Below are positions 5,189 to 16,409 of a stretch of 29,158 nucleotides of DNA, piece by piece. The stretch covers positions 1 through 29,158 of the forward strand of contig JBFMCE010000053.1 of assembly GCA_040754655.1 (NCBI GenBank). The letters run 5' to 3'. This DNA is from Bdellovibrionota bacterium. Its GTDB lineage: Bacteria > Bdellovibrionota > UBA1018 > UBA923. The notes beneath the pieces were generated by a model. It did not search any database and was not told where the DNA came from. It was given only the letters and a program-made list of their open reading frames with translations. Position 1 is the first letter of the stretch. The number at the start of each line of letters is the position of its first letter. Made by a program: the position numbers and the translations under genes.

Positions 5189-6685
5189 TTAAAACACTTT
5201 TTTGCGCTTCGACGAAGAAAGAATGCCCAGCATGTCGCGGTACTTCGCGACAGTTCGCCGAGCGATTTCGATATTCTCTGCCCGCAAAAGCTCTACAATG
5301 CGTTGGTCTGAGAGAGGCCGTGACGCGTCTTCCTTGGAAACCATCTGGCGTATTTTTTCTTTCACCGCTTCCGAAGCCACATCCGCTCCGCCGTCGGCTG
5401 ACGAGATGCTGCTGTTGAAGAAATACTTCAACTCGAAAATCCCGACGGGAGTGTGAACGAACTTATTCGTGGTCACGCGGCTTACCGTTGATTCGTGCAT
5501 TCCGATATCGGCAGCGACATCTTTCAAAATCATCGGCTTCAAAAACCCGACGCCCTTCTCAAAGAAATCGCGTTGGTGCTTCACGATGCTTTCAGTGACC
5601 TTGTAGATCGTCTTTTGCCTGTTATGGATGCTTCGGATCAGCCAGACTGCTGAGCGCAGCTTGTCTTGGATGTATTCCTTGGTGACGTTGCCTTCTTGCT
5701 TGGCGCTCGACAAAACATTCCTGTAGTAGCTCGACACCCGAAGCTTCGGCATCCCGTCTTCATTCAAAGTGATGACGAACTCGCCCCCCACTTTGTACAC
5801 ATAAATATCCGGTGTGATGTACTGGGTGTTGTCGCTTGAAACAAACGAACGACCGGGTTTGGGCTCGAATTCCAAGATGATCTTCGTCGCTACGATCACT
5901 TCGTCTAAAGTCACGCTCAAAGACCTGGCGATGCTTTGGTAGTTCTTTCTCTCAAGATCATGCAAATGATGCTGAATGATCTTTTCAACCATCTCGTTTC
6001 TAGGCTTCAAGAATTGAGCCTGAACCGCAAGGCATTCTTGAAGGTTGCGCGAGCAGACGCCAATCGGGTCAAACCGCTGCATCATCCTCAAGATTTCGTT
6101 GGCGTCTTCAGCGTCAATGCTGGCTTCTTTCGCAAGGTCTTCTACCGGCATGAGAAGGTAGCCGTCTTCGTTCAAGTTTCCGACGACAAGCTCGCCTAGG
6201 CGCCTTTCATCTTCTTGAAATTGACTCAAGCTCAACTGCCAAAGTAGGTGATCGGTAAGAGTCGTTGTTTTTGTGAGGATGTTCTCAAAGCTCGGCAGGT
6301 CTTCGGTGTTGAGCCTGACCGAAGGCAATGTCGAATTGTTATTGAGGTCTTCAACATACGCTTCCCAATCAAATTCTTCTTTCCCCTGCAGAAGCTTTTC
6401 TTGTTGATCTTTGCGAACGGCAAATTCATCGCCTTGCGTGGTCTCAGCAGCTGGCGCATCAATGCTTGGGTCGCTTGATGCCTGCCTGTCGGTATTCTCA
6501 ATGCCTTCAGGGTTATCAACCGTCTCAGCGATCTCCTCAAGTAGGGGATTCTCCATGAGCTCTTGATTGACGACCTCGGCCAGTTCAAGACGGTTGAGCT
6601 GCAATAGCTTGATTGCCTGCTGCAACTGCGGCGTCATGACTAACTGCTGGCTTAATTTTAGGGACTGTTTGATCTCAAGTGCCAT
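5189..6685 (-). CDS. rpoN: RNA polymerase sigma-54 factor
   Basis: QQLVMTPQLQQAIKLLQL region I, HESTVSR helix-turn-helix, RpoN box ARRTVAKYR. Confidence 0.98.
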   Translation of the reverse strand: MALEIKQSLKLSQQLVMTPQLQQAIKLLQLNRLELAEVVNQELMENPLLEEIAETVDNPEGIENTDRQASSDPSIDAPAAETTQGDEFAVRKDQQEKLLQGKEEFDWEAYVEDLNNNSTLPSVRLNTEDLPSFENILTKTTTLTDHLLWQLSLSQFQEDERRLGELVVGNLNEDGYLLMPVEDLAKEASIDAEDANEILRMMQRFDPIGVCSRNLQECLAVQAQFLKPRNEMVEKIIQHHLHDLERKNYQSIARSLSVTLDEVIVATKIILEFEPKPGRSFVSSDNTQYITPDIYVYKVGGEFVITLNEDGMPKLRVSSYYRNVLSSAKQEGNVTKEYIQDKLRSAVWLIRSIHNRQKTIYKVTESIVKHQRDFFEKGVGFLKPMILKDVAADIGMHESTVSRVTTNKFVHTPVGIFELKYFFNSSISSADGGADVASEAVKEKIRQMVSKEDASRPLSDQRIVELLRAENIEIARRTVAKYRDMLGILSSSKRKKVF

Positions 6686-6697
6686 AATTCAACGTCG

Positions 6698-7447
6698 TTA
6701 CAGTCGAAAGTTTTCTCCCAAATAAGCCTCCCGAGCTTTTGCGCTTTGCGCAATATGCTCGGGGGTTCCGTATTCTAAAATCATACCATCTGACAAAATA
6801 TACCCCAAATCACAAATACCCAAGGTCTCTCGCACATTATGATCAGTAATCAGGATACCCAAGCCTCTATTTTTTAATTTCTTAATGATTTCTTGTATAT
6901 CCGCGACAGCTAAAGGATCAACCCCGGCAAAAGGCTCATCGAGTAACAAAAAAACTGGGTTTAACGCAAGCGCTCTGGCGACTTCAACACGGCGTCTTTC
7001 CCCTCCTGAGAGCGTATACCCTTGTTGTCTTGCTACGTGTCGAATATTGAAATCTTCCAGCAGATTTGAAAGAGCTTCGCGACGCTGGGCTGTGGTTAGA
7101 GGAGTATTCTCAAGTACGGCGAGCAAGTTTTCTTCAACCGTCATCTTACGAAAGACACTCGGTTCTTGGGCAAGGTATCCCACGCCCATGATTGCTCGGC
7201 GGTGCATAGGAAGTTCGGTGATCTCTTTGCCGTCAAGTAGAACGCGGCCCGCATCAGGGCGAACCAAACCCACGACCATGTAGAAAGACGTCGTCTTGCC
7301 AGCTCCGTTTGGGCCCAGCAAACCTACGACTTGCCCGGAACTCACGCTAAAACTGACTTCGCGCACGACCGTGCGTTTGCCGAAAGTTTTGACGAGTTTT
7401 TCCGCTTCGAGTTTTCTAATCTCTCGCTGTTCCTTCGTGGTATGCAT
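6698..7447 (-). CDS. lptB: LPS export ABC transporter ATPase
   Basis: GPNGAGKTT, LSGGERRR, LLDEPFAGVDP, ITDHNVRETL, YLGENFRL. Confidence 0.97.
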   Translation of the reverse strand: MHTTKEQREIRKLEAEKLVKTFGKRTVVREVSFSVSSGQVVGLLGPNGAGKTTSFYMVVGLVRPDAGRVLLDGKEITELPMHRRAIMGVGYLAQEPSVFRKMTVEENLLAVLENTPLTTAQRREALSNLLEDFNIRHVARQQGYTLSGGERRRVEVARALALNPVFLLLDEPFAGVDPLAVADIQEIIKKLKNRGLGILITDHNVRETLGICDLGYILSDGMILEYGTPEHIAQSAKAREAYLGENFRL

Positions 7448-8447
7448 TCGCGTGACTCACCTCTACCAGATTCTTCTTTCGGTAGATCGTGATCAGTTCT
7501 CCTGTCAATGTGTCATGTGCCTGATAGGCCGATGGAAACCCCGATAACAAAATCTTGTCTTCTTGCGTCAAGAAGTCGGCTCTCTGACTTGTAGCATACT
7601 TAAGCCCAACTTCCCCTTTTTTCACGTCGGTTTCTTTTATCAGAACATCTTCATAAGCCGTCATGTATTTTACGACGCTTGCATTCGAATCATAAGTCGC
7701 TTCTTGGCGGCGAGAACGAACAAACAACGTTCCTTGGTGCGATTCCACGAATCGGTTAGCGCTGGCCATTGAAAAATACGCCACCTTAGTAAAACGATCA
7801 ATTTTCGACTTGTCCGACCTGACATCTGTCGTTTCATTAGCCGCAAGCCTTCGCAGCTTCACACGGGCCTGATTGTGGATGAAGATATCCGATCCTGATT
7901 TGCTTGCCGAAAAGCCGACTCCCCACATCTGCATGAGTTCTTCTTTTTGAGGAATCGCCTCGCCGTAAAAAGACTCTGTCGAAGAAATGGCGCCCTGTTT
8001 GGCGGAATAATGCGCCTTGGTCGTCTTCAACCAAAACCCGTCGGGGAAGGTCACTTTGACATTTCCAATGAGGTTTAAGTCTCGCTCGCCCATCCCATAA
8101 TGAGCCTCGTCACCTTCAATCAAAGTGACTTTGCCCTGCGGATCAAACATGCGGATTCGCGCGTTGCGCGCTCTGACCACTCTCGACTTCTCAAAGAGAA
8201 TGGCTTTCGTGGCATTGAGTTGCCAATGCTTCATTTCACCTTCGACAGCCGTATAGTGAAACCCATCGATGGTATAGCCCACCTCATCCTTGTACTTCTG
8301 AGCGGTGACCATTGTTTCAAGGGAATCAAACATCCCAGTCGTGGCTTGTTCACCCGTCTCAAGGCTGGTTGGGCGCAAAAATAGGATTTCCACGATGACG
8401 AGAACGCAAACCAGGCAAACAAATAGGAAATTAGGCCTTTTAATCAT
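7416..8447 (-). CDS. lptC: LptC with a C-terminal LptA/OstA-like jellyroll extension
   Basis: N-terminal TM segment, LptC-like WQLNATKA and LNLIGNVKV; C-terminal ATSQRADF...KILLSGFPSAYQAHDTLTGELITIY resembles LptA; lies between kdsC and lptB. Confidence 0.8.
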   Translation of the reverse strand: MIKRPNFLFVCLVCVLVIVEILFLRPTSLETGEQATTGMFDSLETMVTAQKYKDEVGYTIDGFHYTAVEGEMKHWQLNATKAILFEKSRVVRARNARIRMFDPQGKVTLIEGDEAHYGMGERDLNLIGNVKVTFPDGFWLKTTKAHYSAKQGAISSTESFYGEAIPQKEELMQMWGVGFSASKSGSDIFIHNQARVKLRRLAANETTDVRSDKSKIDRFTKVAYFSMASANRFVESHQGTLFVRSRRQEATYDSNASVVKYMTAYEDVLIKETDVKKGEVGLKYATSQRADFLTQEDKILLSGFPSAYQAHDTLTGELITIYRKKNLVEVSHANAYHEGTARD

Positions 8448-8980
8448 TCTTCAACTGCGCACTTGCGGATAAGGTCGGCGATCTCGCGAACCGCGCCAAA
8501 ACCCCCGGGTTCGACGGTGATGTAATGAACAGCCTCTTTCACTTCGACCACGGCATGGGGAACTGTTGCAGAAAATCCCACTGCCTTCAAGACTGGAATA
8601 TCGAACAGGTCATCGCCGACAAAAGCCATTTGCTCATGCTTTAGCCCGGTCGCTTTCACGATCTTCTCTAATGCTATGATCTTGTTCTCATCACCTAAAT
8701 AACAATGCTTTATACCCAGGAACTGAGCGCGCTCCCGCACTGATTTTGAATCGCCGCCGCTAATGACCGCGACGTCGATGCCCGACCTCATGAGCAGCTT
8801 CAAGCCATACCCATCTTTTACGCTGAAAGCCCTTGTCCATCCGGTGCCTTCAATCCACCAAATACGGCCATCGGTCATGACTCCATCGACATCAAGGATG
8901 AGCATTTTGATGCGTTTCAATCGATTGCGCAAATCGCCGGACAAGCTTGTGAAAGGGTCATTGTGGATGGTTTTGGTCAT
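8444..8980 (-). CDS. kdsC: KDO 8-phosphate phosphatase (HAD)
   Basis: LDVDGVMTDG, FSVKDGYG, VGDDLFD. ATG 8980 with a GAGAG SD is preferred over TTG 8998. Confidence 0.93.
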   Translation of the reverse strand: MTKTIHNDPFTSLSGDLRNRLKRIKMLILDVDGVMTDGRIWWIEGTGWTRAFSVKDGYGLKLLMRSGIDVAVISGGDSKSVRERAQFLGIKHCYLGDENKIIALEKIVKATGLKHEQMAFVGDDLFDIPVLKAVGFSATVPHAVVEVKEAVHYITVEPGGFGAVREIADLIRKCAVEE

Positions 8981-9062
8981 AATTTTTCTCTCTATCAAGG
9001 GTATCGCGCCGGAAACCGGAATTAAAGCAGATAAAAGATTCCTAGTTCATGGGAACGCCTTC

Positions 9063-10124
9063 TCAGGTTCCCTTGGCAAGCTTCACGTAGGCCCTCGAGA
9101 AATCAATGAACCGAGCGTCTGGGTTTGCCCAGTTCAATCGAGACTCAATAAATGTCGGCCAGAACGAATCGCTCAAAGACTCTATTTTAGTTCTCACCCA
9201 TTCCGGCAAATCAAACGCCAAACCTGTGGTTCTTTCGAAGACCATCGCCGCCATGAGGGCGGCCCAAAACCAATCAGGCTTTGCGAACAACCCCTGAATT
9301 TGCTTTAACCGCGCCCAATCCAAATTGCCGCGTTCTTGATCGAGAACCATGACAAGATCGAGAAGGTGAATCGCGCTGCCGAGAAGCCCTTCAATGGCGA
9401 ACCTTCTAATCGACATCAATAAAAGATCTGTCCTGTCGAGTTGCAAAGCACCCGGTATTTGCGAAGAAGCTGTCGCTCTATCCCACATGCTGCGCTCGAC
9501 ATCGGTCGACCAGTTCTTGGCCGATTCCCATAGAACGCCGTGAAGTTGAACCGAATGCTCAACACCCATGGTTACTTTCGCGAACCGGTACCCCTCATTC
9601 TTGTCGCGGCTCGAGTAACCAGAGGTTTCCAGAATTTTCGTTATTGAATCGCGCGCGCTCAAGGTCGGAGTCCAAAGAGTAAGTTCTTGAACCATCCTCG
9701 GATTGCTGGCGCCCGCTCCCCAGCGCTCATAGAGCGGTCTTGCTTGGGAATCTCCAATGAGGATCACCGCAGATCCAAGTTGCGGGCCAAACAACCAACT
9801 CATCTCTTGCGAGATGATCTCGTTTCTGCGGCGAGCGACCTCGACTTGCTCGTAAAATCCTTGCCCTAAAATCGGTTCGAGGGCCTTTCCAAAAACCGTG
9901 ACCACCAAACCATGCAGTCGATTCTGAAAGAGAACCTGGCGCAACACTTCTGCTGTTTCTGGCGTGATGTTTTGCAACCTGGGAAGCTCTGCGGTCGTAC
10001 TAGGACCCGCTAAGGCCTTCCAAACGACACTATTCACCCATTCCTGAATGACGATGTCTTCAGTGCCCCACTTTTGACGCTCAAAAACCTTCTCGCTGGA
10101 TGGTTTTTTCGCTTTGGCTTTCAT
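9063..10124 (-). CDS. NTP_transf_5-like nucleotidyltransferase family protein with degenerate catalytic motif
   Basis: Pattern ILIG...LY...PRMVQELTLW / VQLH / MWDRA / DLLL / LLDL / LDWARL follows the family layout; ATGA overlap with the kdsA stop. Confidence 0.6.
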   Translation of the reverse strand: MKAKAKKPSSEKVFERQKWGTEDIVIQEWVNSVVWKALAGPSTTAELPRLQNITPETAEVLRQVLFQNRLHGLVVTVFGKALEPILGQGFYEQVEVARRRNEIISQEMSWLFGPQLGSAVILIGDSQARPLYERWGAGASNPRMVQELTLWTPTLSARDSITKILETSGYSSRDKNEGYRFAKVTMGVEHSVQLHGVLWESAKNWSTDVERSMWDRATASSQIPGALQLDRTDLLLMSIRRFAIEGLLGSAIHLLDLVMVLDQERGNLDWARLKQIQGLFAKPDWFWAALMAAMVFERTTGLAFDLPEWVRTKIESLSDSFWPTFIESRLNWANPDARFIDFSRAYVKLAKGT

Positions 10125-10942
10125 TGGGTTTCGCAGGCATTCCGAATACGTTGCAAAGACTCCAAGAAGGCTGACACCTCTTTAAGAGGAAAAGCATTGG
10201 CGGCATCGCTCTTGGCTTCGCTGGGACGAGGATGGGTCTCGATGAAAAGCCCGTCGATGCCCACGGCGACCGCGGCTCGAGCCAGGGGTGCGATGAATTC
10301 CCTTCGCCCGCCAGTGACTTTGCCTCCCTGGGCGCCACCGGGCAATTGCACAGAATGAGTGGCGTCAAAGATCACGGGCACGCCGTTCTGCCTCAAAATC
10401 GGAAAACTCGTCATATCGACGACGAGGTTGTTGTAACCAAAAGAAGAGCCTCGTTCAGTCAACCAAAGCCACCGCGGCTTGCGCTCTGAAGTTACCGCTT
10501 CGACCTTCTCAACCACGTTCGCCATGTCCCAAGGCGCCAGAAACTGGCCCTTCTTCACGTTAAGTGAAATACCGTTTTTATGCGCTTGCCGCGCGGCTTC
10601 TTGAATAAGATCGGTTTGCCTGCACAAAAACGCCGGGATTTGCAAGGCATCCACGACCTTCGCGGCTGCTTCGCATTGGCCAGCCTCGTGAACATCAGTG
10701 ATCACCTTAAGACCGAATTTTTTCTTGATCTTGCCCAGCATTTCAATTCCGCGCTCCAAGCCAGGCCCCCTGAAAGAGTCATGGGCGCTTCTATTTGCCT
10801 TGTCGAATGAGGCCTTGAAGTAAAGCTCCCATCCTTTGAACGGTTGGACGGCTTCCTTCAGCCACCCGGCTACTTCATCAAGCAGGCCTTCAGACTCGAT
10901 CACGCAGGGGCCTGCTATGAGGATGAAAGGTTTGTCCGCCAT
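10121..10942 (-). CDS. kdsA: KDO 8-phosphate synthase (metal-dependent type)
   Basis: IAGPCVIE, KASFDKANRS, QIPAFLCRQTDL, KKGQF, FDATHSVQ. Confidence 0.97.
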   Translation of the reverse strand: MADKPFILIAGPCVIESEGLLDEVAGWLKEAVQPFKGWELYFKASFDKANRSAHDSFRGPGLERGIEMLGKIKKKFGLKVITDVHEAGQCEAAAKVVDALQIPAFLCRQTDLIQEAARQAHKNGISLNVKKGQFLAPWDMANVVEKVEAVTSERKPRWLWLTERGSSFGYNNLVVDMTSFPILRQNGVPVIFDATHSVQLPGGAQGGKVTGGRREFIAPLARAAVAVGIDGLFIETHPRPSEAKSDAANAFPLKEVSAFLESLQRIRNACETQ

Positions 10943-10944
10943 AC

Positions 10945-12570
<1,626 letters not shown>

Positions 12571-13305
12571 TTACACTAGCATCGCGCGACGCACGAATTC
12601 AAGGTCTTCATGAGTATCAACGCCGGGAGTTGCATGATCGGCTTGAGCTACCCCTATCGGAATACCATAATAAAGCGCTCGCAATTGCTCTAACGACTCC
12701 GCGGCTTCCCAAGGAGAGGGTTTGAATTCAGTGAATTTCAACAAAATCTCTCGGGTATAAACATACACGCCAAGATGATGGCGAAGAGCGGCTTGAGAAA
12801 AGTCGCCCGGCAGCGCGCCTCTTGAATAAGGTATTGGAAACCTTGAGAAGTAAACCGCCCGCTCATCGGCCGCAACCAAAACCTTCACTACGTTGGGATT
12901 GCGCAAAGCAGCCTCATCTTTAAGCGGGGCCGCTGGGGTTGTTATCGGGAATCGGCCGCTTTGGACAAGCTCGACACACCTCTCAACGCACTTTGGATCG
13001 AGCATAGGCTCATCGCCTTGCACGTTGACGAAAATACGATGCCGCTTTTGCCGCGCCACGGCTGCGACCCTGTCGGTACCCGAATTCAGTGTCGCGGGCG
13101 TCATGACCGCTTCACCACCGAATTTGACCACAGCTCGAAAAATCTTTTCATGATCGGTGGCGACAATCACATCGCTCACGTCCCTGACCTGGCATGCGCG
13201 TTCATACACGTGCTGAACCATGGGTTTGCCATTGATGTCGAGAAGAGCCTTTTCGGGCAAACGAGTGCTTCCCAGTCGAGACGGGATCACGATACAAACT
13301 GACAT
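12571..13305 (-). CDS. kdsB: CMP-KDO synthetase
   Basis: IPSRLGSTRLPEK, SGTDR, VNVQGDEP, YFSR, ESLEQLRAL. Confidence 0.97.
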   Translation of the reverse strand: MSVCIVIPSRLGSTRLPEKALLDINGKPMVQHVYERACQVRDVSDVIVATDHEKIFRAVVKFGGEAVMTPATLNSGTDRVAAVARQKRHRIFVNVQGDEPMLDPKCVERCVELVQSGRFPITTPAAPLKDEAALRNPNVVKVLVAADERAVYFSRFPIPYSRGALPGDFSQAALRHHLGVYVYTREILLKFTEFKPSPWEAAESLEQLRALYYGIPIGVAQADHATPGVDTHEDLEFVRRAMLV

Positions 13306-13391: not shown

Positions 13392-14756
13392 TTAGGCCGC
13401 TTTTTTCTCGGCGATATAGACGCTGTTTCGAGTCGATCGTTTGACGCTGTACATGGCGTTGTCAGCCGCTTCGATGATGTCGCGCTTGCTTATGGCGTGT
13501 TCAGGACATGAAGCGACTCCGATGCTCACGGTGAGCCTGATATTGAGCGACTCCTTTGCAAGAAAGTAGTTTCCTTCGACTCCCTCACGGATGCGCTCGC
13601 CAACGGACTCGGCCAAATCGGTCGCCGCATCGTCAAGCAAAACGACGAACTCATCACCGCCGTACCGAAATGCGACATCTCCTTTGCGCAGGTTGCTTCT
13701 GATGATCTCTCCCATCTCAAAGAGCAGCTTCGTGCCCACGAGGTGGCCGTGAGAGTCATTGATGCCTTTAAACCTATCGACATCGATGAAGAGCACCGAG
13801 AACTTTTTCGTTTTATCTTTTTCCCAGCGCTCAAAGTATTGGTCGAGGCAAAGATGCAAGTATCGCGTGTTATAGAGGCCTGTCGGCTCGTCAAGATAGA
13901 GCAAGTGCCTGACGCCGCGGTAGTTTTGGATATTTCGCCCGGTCATCTGGATCTGGGCCTGCAGGAGCCTGAATCGCGAATCCACCTCATCCGAGGGAGT
14001 AGTCCAGTTCGGCGCGATGCATACGGCAAAGTATTTCGCGTCGCCAACGCACCTGAATTCAAAGATCGCGATCTCGGGCGCGCCGTTCGATTTCGTGATG
14101 ATCCGCATCGGGTGCTTTTCACCATCGCTCGACTTCAAGAGATTGTGCCGATCCACCAAAACTTCCACCACATCGACATCGGCGTCTGAAGCGGTCTTGA
14201 CGTAAGAGGTCTTGTTTCCGGACGCCTTATAGAGAGCCAAGCCGCTGCAGCCGGTTTCCCTTCTGAGGTAGCTTGTCACGGAATCAAAAATCTTCTCTTC
14301 CTCTAGGCAACCCGAGATGAGCTGGCAGCAATTAAGAAGCAACATCAACCCGGTGACGATCTGATCGCCCGTGTAAAGATCTCGTCGATCGAGGCACCTT
14401 CGCACCGCGAGCTTGAAATGCTCCGGGTTATAAGGTTTCTTGAAATACTCATCTGCGCCGTACCGAAGGGCCTTCACGGCTTCCTCGATCGTCGCGAACG
14501 CGGAAGTCAAAATCACGCTGGTGGATGGAGAACCTCTCTTCACGCGCTCAAGAACCGTCAACCCATCCATGTCACCGATGCCGCAATCAGCGATCACCAG
14601 TTGGTAGTTGGTGCGCGATACAAGTTCAACGGCCCTTTCCCCAGAGTTGGTCGAGTCGACCTTGGCTCTAACGACGTCTCGAATCAGCTCCATCGCCAAT
14701 TCGGTTTGCCTTGAATCACTCTCGACGATCAAAACGTTGGGGGTAGAAAGTGCCAT
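13392..14756 (-). CDS. REC-(middle domain)-GGDEF dinucleotide cyclase, Hypr/GacA-like (candidate 3',3'-cGAMP synthase)
   Basis: REC domain with D57 and KP; DEPTGLYN; DVDRFKGINDSHGHLVGT (Thr342 at the conserved Asp); RKGD I-site; RYGGDEF. Confidence 0.9.
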   Translation of the reverse strand: MALSTPNVLIVESDSRQTELAMELIRDVVRAKVDSTNSGERAVELVSRTNYQLVIADCGIGDMDGLTVLERVKRGSPSTSVILTSAFATIEEAVKALRYGADEYFKKPYNPEHFKLAVRRCLDRRDLYTGDQIVTGLMLLLNCCQLISGCLEEEKIFDSVTSYLRRETGCSGLALYKASGNKTSYVKTASDADVDVVEVLVDRHNLLKSSDGEKHPMRIITKSNGAPEIAIFEFRCVGDAKYFAVCIAPNWTTPSDEVDSRFRLLQAQIQMTGRNIQNYRGVRHLLYLDEPTGLYNTRYLHLCLDQYFERWEKDKTKKFSVLFIDVDRFKGINDSHGHLVGTKLLFEMGEIIRSNLRKGDVAFRYGGDEFVVLLDDAATDLAESVGERIREGVEGNYFLAKESLNIRLTVSIGVASCPEHAISKRDIIEAADNAMYSVKRSTRNSVYIAEKKAA

Positions 14757-14765
14757 CGTGTTTCC

Positions 14766-16409
14766 TTAAGCTGCGTTGGTGTCCTTATCCAACTGAGGGG
14801 GCTTCTCAGCGCTCGACTGTTCCGCGTCGGTTTCGATGATTCCGAGCGCAAGCCTTAAGACTTTTGCGATCCTCTCGAGTTTGTCTTGACCGGCTCTCAT
14901 GTTTTGTTTTTCGATTTCGAGTTTGTCTTGAAGGGTGTCGTAATTAAACTCAAGCAAGTCGATTTTTCGTTTAAGTTCGAGAATCTTGTTCTCCCGCGCG
15001 GAGATCAGGGTTTCACTGTCTTTCTTCAAGATCTCGAGCTTGCTTTCAAGCTCTTTTTCCCGAACCCTGATCTTTCGAATGTCGAGCCTTACTCGTTCCT
15101 TCAGTTTTTCATACTGCTCCGCTGAATCCGTGAGTTTTTCTTCAAGGAACTTGATCCGGTCGATTTTTGTTTTGACCTCGAACCGAAGCTGCTCAAGATC
15201 TCCTTCGCGGCTTTTGCCCGCATGCCTAAGCTCTTCCTGCTGTTGCGAATGCTTTCTCTTCAGGTCCGCGAACTGATGCGCCAGATCCTCGTTCTGAAGA
15301 TTGAGCCTCTTGATCGTCTCTTCAGATTTGGCGAGTTCTTCTTTGGCATAAGAGAGCTGAGCGGTAAGCACTGCGATGTCTTGCTCGCGCATCGACACGT
15401 ATTTTTTCAGGGCGTCGGCGCCGTCGGACTGCTCTGCAGAGTTGAATTGTTGAAGCAGTTGTCCCCTTGTGCCTTCAAAGTTATTCACCAACGGTATTTG
15501 TTGATTGCCTTGATGCAACGATTGGCCGGCGAAAAGATAGGGCAGGTCCTTCGCCGCTTCTTCCTCACTGACACCCGCGGCGCCCACTTCGGCGATCACC
15601 GAATCGTTTTGCAAAGGCGCCAGGGGTACTGGTTTTTGCTCCTCGAGAGACAGTTTTATGCTTGGATTTGATTGCTGGCCCTTGGCCTTCTCTAGAGGTT
15701 TGTCTGCATCCGCGAACGAAACACGCAACCCCGTGCCCTCAAGCTTTACTTCCGCGACGGGAATATCGATGCCACTCAGCTCTGAAACTGGCGCCGCAGG
15801 AGCCGATTCCACGATGTCACCAGGCGTGGATTCCTCTTCATCGTCAAAAACATTGGCGGGCATCTCAAGATCGAGGTCGCCGGGAAGTTCTTCTTTGATG
15901 TTCAAGAGCTCATCGGCCTGATGCAAAGTCACGTTCGACGCGGAAAAACTCGCGGTACTTTTGGTGCCTGCCGCCTGCACGACTTTCGATTCGGTCATGA
16001 CGGTTGCAGCAGGTTTTGTCTGGGCAAGCTTTTGACCCGTGACCGCCTCGATCACGGAGACAAGCTCTTCCAGCGGCGTCTTCTTGTTGAAATAGGCGTT
16101 TGCACCCGATTCCGTCTTCTGATGGCGGGCGAAGTCTACTTTTTGCCAAAGGGCGGATAAGATGATGTAAGGCACATCCGACGTATGCGCGTCTTTTCGT
16201 ATCGTTCGCGCCAATTCCAGGCCAGCCTCGCCCCCTTCCACAAGCTCGCGCGAAATCAAAACGATGTCTATTGCCGCCGGGTCTTGTTTTATAGCCTGGA
16301 GCGCGGCTTCAACCTGGGCAAAAACCACGCACTCCACGCCGCCTTGTGAACAGCGCCGGGCAAAAACAGAGCTAAACGACGGATCACTGTCAACCACTAT
16401 GATCTTCAT
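14766..16409 (-). CDS. FrzS-like pseudo-receiver + acidic linker + long coiled-coil protein
   Basis: REC fold with Ser53 at the phospho-acceptor position, FARHQKTESGANAYF segment, ~190-aa heptad-rich C-terminus ending in LRLALGII. Confidence 0.75.
   Translation of the reverse strand: MKIIVVDSDPSFSSVFARRCSQGGVECVVFAQVEAALQAIKQDPAAIDIVLISRELVEGGEAGLELARTIRKDAHTSDVPYIILSALWQKVDFARHQKTESGANAYFNKKTPLEELVSVIEAVTGQKLAQTKPAATVMTESKVVQAAGTKSTASFSASNVTLHQADELLNIKEELPGDLDLEMPANVFDDEEESTPGDIVESAPAAPVSELSGIDIPVAEVKLEGTGLRVSFADADKPLEKAKGQQSNPSIKLSLEEQKPVPLAPLQNDSVIAEVGAAGVSEEEAAKDLPYLFAGQSLHQGNQQIPLVNNFEGTRGQLLQQFNSAEQSDGADALKKYVSMREQDIAVLTAQLSYAKEELAKSEETIKRLNLQNEDLAHQFADLKRKHSQQQEELRHAGKSREGDLEQLRFEVKTKIDRIKFLEEKLTDSAEQYEKLKERVRLDIRKIRVREKELESKLEILKKDSETLISARENKILELKRKIDLLEFNYDTLQDKLEIEKQNMRAGQDKLERIAKVLRLALGIIETDAEQSSAEKPPQLDKDTNAA

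Follow-up and report, generated by a model that had tools for sequence, protein, structure and literature searches.

A Thr-type Hypr GGDEF protein of GacA architecture, and probable 3',3'-cGAMP synthase, in a Bdellovibrionota genome

A 29,158-nucleotide stretch of DNA from a Bdellovibrionota bacterium (NCBI GenBank assembly GCA_040754655.1, contig JBFMCE010000053.1, positions 1 to 29,158; hereafter the window) carries on its minus strand, at 13392..14756, a gene for a 454-aa protein with a C-terminal GGDEF domain and threonine at the base-selectivity position. The question raised by this locus is whether the protein makes cyclic di-GMP (c-di-GMP) or 3',3'-cGAMP (cyclic GMP-AMP). Hypr enzymes are an exception to the rule that equates GGDEF domains with c-di-GMP, and the original prediction, made from the DNA letters, had assigned the protein to this group on the premise that Ser or Thr at the selectivity position defines it. 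That premise matches the published definition (PMC6456294, PMC9140294), and PMC9140294, citing Hallberg 2016, attributes specificity for ATP + GTP to 'either a serine or threonine'. Hypr enzymes are reported to be rare, with a figure of 0.17% of GGDEF domains quoted in the same paper. As judged from its sequence, the protein is a Thr-type Hypr GGDEF of GacA architecture, and it is probably able to make 3',3'-cGAMP.

No new kind of system is described, the definition of the class having been published already. The worth of the locus lies in the size and uniformity of a well-populated Thr-type clade (full-length orthologues in about 53 sampled genomes of one order, and 14 among the top 150 clusters when clustered at 50% identity), in a genome holding both a Ser-type and a Thr-type enzyme, and in a conserved coiled-coil partner gene. 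Whether Thr equals Ser at this site bears on every automatic sequence-based prediction of cGAMP signalling.

Domain layout and the selectivity position

The features of the gene are given below, with residue numbers referring to the 454-aa protein; AF2 is AlphaFold2 and pLDDT the predicted local distance difference test score.

13392..14756 (-), Thr-type Hypr GGDEF gene by sequence, encoding a 454-aa receiver (REC) / GAF-like / GGDEF protein (open reading frame list; Pfam; AF2 mean pLDDT 90.1)
14403..14735 (-), REC domain, residues 8-118, with phospho-acceptor Asp57 (codon 14586-14588), Ser85 and Lys107-Pro108 (Pfam PF00072 Response_reg, E 4.3e-20)
13902..14384 (-), middle domain, residues 125-285, predicted to be a divergent GAF-like fold, with a long final helix at 255-285 running into the GGDEF domain (AF2, Foldseek, ESM Atlas)
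13425..13898 (-), GGDEF catalytic domain, residues 287-444 (Pfam PF00990, E 2.8e-40; nearest solved relative 6d9m, E 9.8e-43)
13731..13733 (-), Thr342 codon ACG, the position of base selectivity, corresponding to D344 of PleD and S347/S348 of GacA (sequence and phmmer alignments)
13866..13868 (-), Thr297 codon, cross-dimer position, Tyr304 in GacA and Arg in most canonical cyclases (phmmer alignment; role of the position from PMC6456294)
13647..13661 (-), GGDEF motif (ggc ggt gat gag ttc) with central Asp368 (sequence)
13677..13688 (-), RxxD inhibitory site (I-site) R357-K-G-D360, 5 residues N-terminal of GGDEF (sequence)

The open reading frame starts with ATG, has GGAAA just before it and begins 9 bases past the stop codon of the upstream gene. 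The Thr342, GGDEF and RKGD motifs named in the original prediction were all correct in the DNA letters, coordinates included, and its REC-middle-GGDEF layout of 454 aa agreed with the open reading frame list and with the Pfam matches to REC and GGDEF.

The protein was searched against all PDB sequences with phmmer. The top match was 6d9m (E 9.8e-43, 149.8 bits, query residues 286-449), which according to its PDB record is a T4 lysozyme fusion of the Hypr GGDEF domain of Geobacter metallireducens GacA. GacA (GSU1658 of Geobacter sulfurreducens; Gmet_1914 of G. metallireducens; PDB 5VS9/6D9M) is the founding Hypr GMP-AMP cyclase. PleD entries came next at E 3.6e-30, with the GGDEF stretch of PleD alone scoring 86.9 bits; the next isolated GGDEF domain after 6d9m scored 92.6 bits. 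The query motif 'gindshghlvgT' was aligned with 'gvndthghlvgS' of GacA and 'kindtfghdigD' of PleD, and Thr342 is thus the counterpart of GacA Ser348 and PleD Asp344, the three residues standing in one column as the original prediction had proposed. Upstream of this motif, 'NTRY' was aligned with 'NYRY' of GacA and 'NRRY' of PleD, placing Thr297 at the cross-dimer site. An offset of 130 between the 6d9m chain and Gmet numbering was set by taking the aligned Ser as Ser348, by which Thr297 corresponds to Tyr304.

In GacA the Watson-Crick face of the base is contacted by Ser348 and the sugar face by Asn339 (PMC6456294). The same paper gives GGDE[F/Y] as the exclusive motif of natural Ser/Thr enzymes, a 'Goldilocks' pairing, and reports a cross-dimer Arg in 94% of predicted diguanylate cyclases; among Hypr enzymes an Arg at this site goes with more c-di-GMP, and Tyr, Ser, Ala or Gln with mainly cGAMP. 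Because Asn333, the central Asp368 and Thr297 are all present, the protein fits the Hypr class on every signature. The Hypr assignment of the original prediction therefore held for each feature that sequence can address (Ser/Thr position, GGDEF, non-Arg cross-dimer residue, grouping), although a cross-dimer Thr itself lies outside the residues reported as tested in PMC6456294 (Tyr, Ser, Ala, Gln).

Residues 125-285 gave no meaningful sequence match in Pfam or PDB, and Foldseek of the whole cyclase model was dominated by REC and GGDEF, with nothing on the middle domain. The domain was therefore considered as a model of its own (AF2, 24 orthologues; pLDDT 84.8, predicted TM-score 0.80). Foldseek of this model returned GAF domains (3k2n, Nlh1 GAF 4g3k, 3cit, phytochrome GAFs and Lcd1 GAF) at E 4e-5 to 6e-4 and query TM-scores (TMq) of 0.5-0.64. 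Structure search of the ESM Atlas gave TM 0.61-0.73 to GAF-bearing clusters, the first row being a 455-aa REC+GGDEF cluster of Thermodesulfobacteriota. The modelled middle domain is accordingly assigned a GAF fold, at the level of a prediction. The PDB molecule name of GacA in 6d9m is 'response receiver sensor diguanylate cyclase, GAF domain-containing', and since the predicted middle domain has the fold given in that name the architecture is that of GacA: an N-terminal REC (Pfam), a GAF-fold middle (Foldseek, ESM Atlas) and a C-terminal GGDEF with an RxxD I-site.

Identity with GacA was ∼47% over 164 aligned residues (phmmer alignment count) and 41% over 196 columns (Foldseek). The two proteins share the order receiver, GAF-like, GGDEF, an orphan receiver, the 'GHLVG' context, the central Asp of GGDEF, the sugar-face Asn, a non-Arg cross-dimer residue and the RxxD I-site. 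The window protein differs from GacA in having Thr for Ser at the selectivity position and Thr for Tyr at the cross-dimer position, in its Bdellovibrionota host, in that its genome yielded no GEMM-Ib riboswitch, and in the conserved pseudo-receiver/coiled-coil gene upstream. The lack of a cognate kinase in the window was as originally noted, no HisKA or HATPase_c domain being found in window open reading frames of at least 150 aa.

Bd0367 (DgcA) of Bdellovibrio bacteriovorus HD100 is a REC-GGDEF Hypr enzyme with Ser214 and no middle domain, whose products in vivo are cGAMP and c-di-GMP (PMC9140294). It is of the same phylum and, like the window protein, has a receiver-controlled Hypr-type GGDEF with an intact I-site, but the window protein has Thr and a middle domain. 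When the whole model was searched with Foldseek, PleD of Caulobacter vibrioides ranked first; this REC-REC'-GGDEF protein is of similar length and likewise has an N-terminal receiver, a C-terminal GGDEF and an I-site. Unlike the window protein, PleD has Asp344, a cross-dimer Arg, GGEEF and a second receiver-like middle domain. Assignment to the PleD type of canonical diguanylate cyclase is contradicted by Thr342, by the GAF-fold middle domain and by the PleD equivalog model NF007135 (NCBIfam), which scored 177.5 bits against a cut-off of 474.

Conservation, distribution and phylogeny

Of 120 homologues listed, the fragments P0028 (278 aa) and P0110 (326 aa) were left out and 118 were aligned. 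Position 342 was Thr in 115 and Ser in 3, with no Asp, so that Thr342 is not a chance substitution in one sequence. GGDEF with its central Asp was present in 118/118, as was Asn333. Position 297 was Thr in 111, Ala in 5, Ser in 1 and Val in 1, and never Arg. The I-site was retained (Arg357 in 112/118, Asp360 in 118/118), as was the receiver (Asp57 in 104/118, Lys107 in 114/118), and D325, D327, N333, G366-F370, K439 and R443 were invariant or nearly so. The homologues came from Bdellovibrionota and Bacteriovoracia metagenome-assembled genomes and were named 'diguanylate cyclase' or 'cell cycle response regulator' at source; the only NCBIfam model above its cut-off for the window protein was the generic GGDEF model. 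The mislabelling foreseen in the original prediction was thereby borne out.

The distribution of the protein was examined in 401 sampled Bdellovibrionota genomes, 140 of which had a match at E <=1e-40. Full-length matches (query ∼7-450, E <=1e-65) were confined to the window's own order, in ∼53 genomes; within this order, family f4 had none in 17 genomes. In the other classes of the phylum, matches either covered the GGDEF domain alone or were full-length but weaker, with 28-34% identity. Because full-length matches are restricted in this way, the report that Bd0367 is the sole cGAMP synthase (PMC9140294) has no bearing on the window protein.

Of 29 orthologous loci fetched, the selectivity residue was Thr in 28 and Ser in one (L117). 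Together with the 3 Ser among 118 homologues, this exchange suggests that Ser and Thr are equivalent at this site within the clade. Among 20 further Bdellovibrionota relatives the residue was Ser in 16, Thr in 3 and unread in 1, with no Asp, and the REC-middle-GGDEF proteins of other classes (L142-L148, n = 7) had Ser in 6, L147 being unread. Outside the phylum, genome contigs were scanned with generic peptide patterns, a scan with no Bdellovibrionota among the matches listed. The 10 closest loci among those matches, from Acidobacteriota, Myxococcota and Eisenbacteria, all had 'GHLxGS' with GGDEF, and Asp-type proteins appeared lower down.

An exhaustive search of 1.84 billion proteins was also made, and the best 150 cluster representatives (50% identity clusters) were read. 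These comprised Ser 104, Thr 14, Asp 17, Asn 6, Gly 5, Arg 2, Glu 1 and 1 truncated sequence. Ser or Thr was therefore present in 118 of the 149 readable representatives, and 117 of those 118 had GGDE[F/Y]; 13 of the 17 Asp-type rows had GGEEF.

A quick maximum-likelihood tree was calculated from 129 GGDEF domains, with GacA and Bd0367 outside its rows. The window protein fell in a clade of 31 rows (29 Thr, 2 Ser) with a Shimodaira-Hasegawa-like approximate likelihood ratio test (SH-aLRT) support of 91, within an enclosing clade of 58 rows (32 Thr, 25 Ser, 1 unread, 0 Asp) with support of 85. Five Asp-type GGDEF domains from the same genome were placed elsewhere. The description 'Thr variant of GacA' was apt, in that no solved structure matches better than GacA, a GAF fold is predicted for the middle domain and the clade is nested among Ser-type relatives. 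In the tree, Thr arose at least twice.

Shorter Thr-type GGDEF proteins of 339-356 aa ('NDGHGHLVGT', GGDEF) were observed in family f22 (L140, L141, L152, L161 and L162; genomes G133, G066 and G249). They formed a well-supported clade of their own beside a Ser-type protein and had a coiled-coil homologue upstream.

Product of the enzyme and competing readings

In the reading preferred here, the receiver, through Asp57, would control the pairing of two GGDEF domains, which would be brought together by the long helix at the end of the GAF-like domain. One purine nucleoside triphosphate (NTP) would be bound per half-site, with the central Asp368 holding Mg2+ at a matching distance and the non-Arg Thr297 not favouring guanine. 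ATP and GTP would then be joined to 3',3'-cGAMP, side products being c-di-GMP and perhaps c-di-AMP, and the RxxD site would allow feedback or cross-inhibition by cyclic dinucleotides.

Several points weigh against cGAMP as the product, the first of which concern parts that would act downstream of cGAMP. One GEMM-I riboswitch was found in the same genome (L009 136-236 (+), contig 179, 63.6 bits), and a GEMM-I match was present in 88 of the 116 genomes of the order, nearly always in single copy. Position 20 was read as the base immediately 5' of the first paired 'GC', which we take to be its place on the Rfam model, and this base was G in all 31 GEMM-I riboswitches read in the order, comprising that of the same genome and 30 others. 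A G at position 20 denotes the c-di-GMP type and an A the cGAMP type (PMC6140456). The same genome had 14 HD-GYP-like (PF13487) matches (L122-L133). At the presumed place of the Rxx(K/R) motif in HD-GYP proteins, the 4 readable motifs of the genome were RPYR, RPYR, RPFR and RSYS, none of them Rxx(Q/N). The latter is the mark of cGAMP-specific HD-GYP phosphodiesterases (10.1101/600031). Neither a GEMM-Ib riboswitch nor an Rxx(Q/N) HD-GYP protein is required in every Hypr system.

Further points against concern the enzyme and its relatives. Thr is beta-branched and bulkier than Ser, and the product ratio could differ accordingly. Neither an assay of a naturally occurring Thr-type enzyme nor a relevant report of S347T came up in a literature search that did not extend to Hallberg 2016. 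Support for the tree is moderate (SH-aLRT 85-91, from a quick search of rows without GacA and Bd0367).

Finally, cGAMP could be supplied by another enzyme alone. The assembly (3.78 Mb, 196 contigs, ∼90% complete) had 8 GGDEF matches: 5 Asp-type with GGEEF, 1 Asp-type whose motif could not be read, the window protein and a protein encoded at L006 1069-2019 (+) on contig 57. The latter is a 316-aa REC-GGDEF protein with Ser ('NDKHDHLFGS'), GGDEF and a cross-dimer Met, and on this basis is a Bd0367-like second candidate Hypr enzyme of the genome. Since it has the architecture of Bd0367, the window protein is a paralogue of the Bd0367 type and not the orthologue of Bd0367. Full-length matches to the L006 protein (E <=1e-48) were found in ∼25 of the 116 genomes of the order. 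In seven holders of the Thr-type enzyme (G335, G065, G165, G314, G149, G284 and G197) no L006 match was found at E 1e-30, other Ser-type architectures not having been searched for there.

The main rival reading is that the protein is Hypr-like in sequence yet serves chiefly as a diguanylate cyclase in vivo, with c-di-GMP as its physiological product, either through poor tolerance of ATP by Thr342 or through cell conditions that favour GTP. The uniformly G-type riboswitches, the HD-GYP motifs of the genome and the intact I-site agree with this, as does the behaviour of Ser-type Hypr enzymes: Cabther_A1065 and Ddes1475 give more c-di-GMP (PMC6456294), and Bd0367 makes both dinucleotides in vivo (PMC9140294). 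The pattern of conservation argues the other way, however, the 118 homologues combining the lack of Asp at 342 with an invariant central Asp in GGDEF, a pairing that characterizes Ser/Thr enzymes but not Asp-type enzymes. The cross-dimer residue is moreover not the Arg linked to c-di-GMP, and the genome already has the 5 Asp-type GGEEF cyclases. A diguanylate cyclase is on balance a possible but rather unlikely identity for the protein.

A main product other than cGAMP or c-di-GMP, either c-di-AMP or a dinucleotide from another purine NTP, would follow if Thr342 and Thr297 together shifted specificity away from guanine. The pair is fixed in the clade, and Hypr enzymes in vitro form some c-di-AMP, besides accepting other purine NTPs (PMC6456294, PMC9140294). 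Such a product was nevertheless without precedent in the literature examined, GacA binds GTP better than ATP (PMC6456294), and the other base contact, Asn333, is unchanged, which makes this outcome quite improbable.

Side observations were also made on these loci. Most HD-GYP-like proteins of the genome have GFP for GYP and are without the presumed Rxx(K/R) base-contact motif, and by sequence many of them may be degenerate or re-specified. The next same-strand open reading frame, ∼295 bases past the L009 riboswitch, has the look of a radical S-adenosylmethionine protein of QueE type (CxxxCxxC), an unusual neighbour. At L006, a two-receiver tetratricopeptide repeat protein ends 8 bases into the 1069-2019 gene.

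The upstream partner and gene neighbourhood

In the protein encoded directly upstream of the cyclase, residues 3-120 have a receiver fold, which is followed by a low-complexity linker and then by a highly conserved C-terminal coiled coil.

14766..16409 (-), upstream partner, 547 aa, pseudo-receiver, linker and conserved coiled coil (Pfam REC at 3-120; 9 bases from the cyclase gene)

On alignment to PhoB, Ser53 of the partner sits in the column of Asp53, which we take to be the PhoB phospho-acceptor. The architecture is reminiscent of FrzS of Myxococcus. Among the 29 orthologous loci, 28 had a homologue of the partner as the gene directly upstream of the cyclase, and the remaining locus is cut off; 29 columns of the coiled coil were invariant in 26 sequences. 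This conserved pseudo-receiver/coiled-coil gene upstream of the Thr-type cyclase is a new point. The pairing suggests a link between the cyclase and the partner protein. In more distant Ser/Thr-type loci a coiled-coil homologue was directly upstream in 4 of 9 (L155, L160, L161 and L162).

A catalytically silent GGDEF domain, acting as nucleotide receptor or as scaffold together with the coiled-coil partner, would suit the 28 paired loci and the intact I-site but is very improbable given the near-invariance of the catalytic residues D325, D327, N333, G366-F370, K439 and R443.

For the cGAMP synthase preferred here, a wider and more tentative proposal joins the two genes. The exchange of Ser for Thr would be a retuning of product ratio fixed in the lineage, and cyclase and partner would form a two-gene module in which the partner, as a scaffold, would position or gate the making of cGAMP at a particular site of the cell, e.g. 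the pole, in predatory bacteria. Ser/Thr-type Hypr GGDEF genes are adjoined by a coiled-coil homologue in further classes of the phylum as well; the proposal as a whole is speculative and rather unlikely.

The minus-strand run of genes comprises the partner gene, the cyclase gene, kdsB, pyrG, kdsA, an unnamed gene, a KdsC-like haloacid dehalogenase (HAD) phosphatase, lptC/A-like, lptB and rpoN. A scan for promoters and terminators gave the same counts as shuffled sequence. Of the 29 orthologous loci, whose fetched flanks were short, at least 10 had kdsB and pyrG after the cyclase gene. In the window, the classical envelope cluster from kdsB to rpoN lies downstream of the cyclase gene at 5189-13305 (-).

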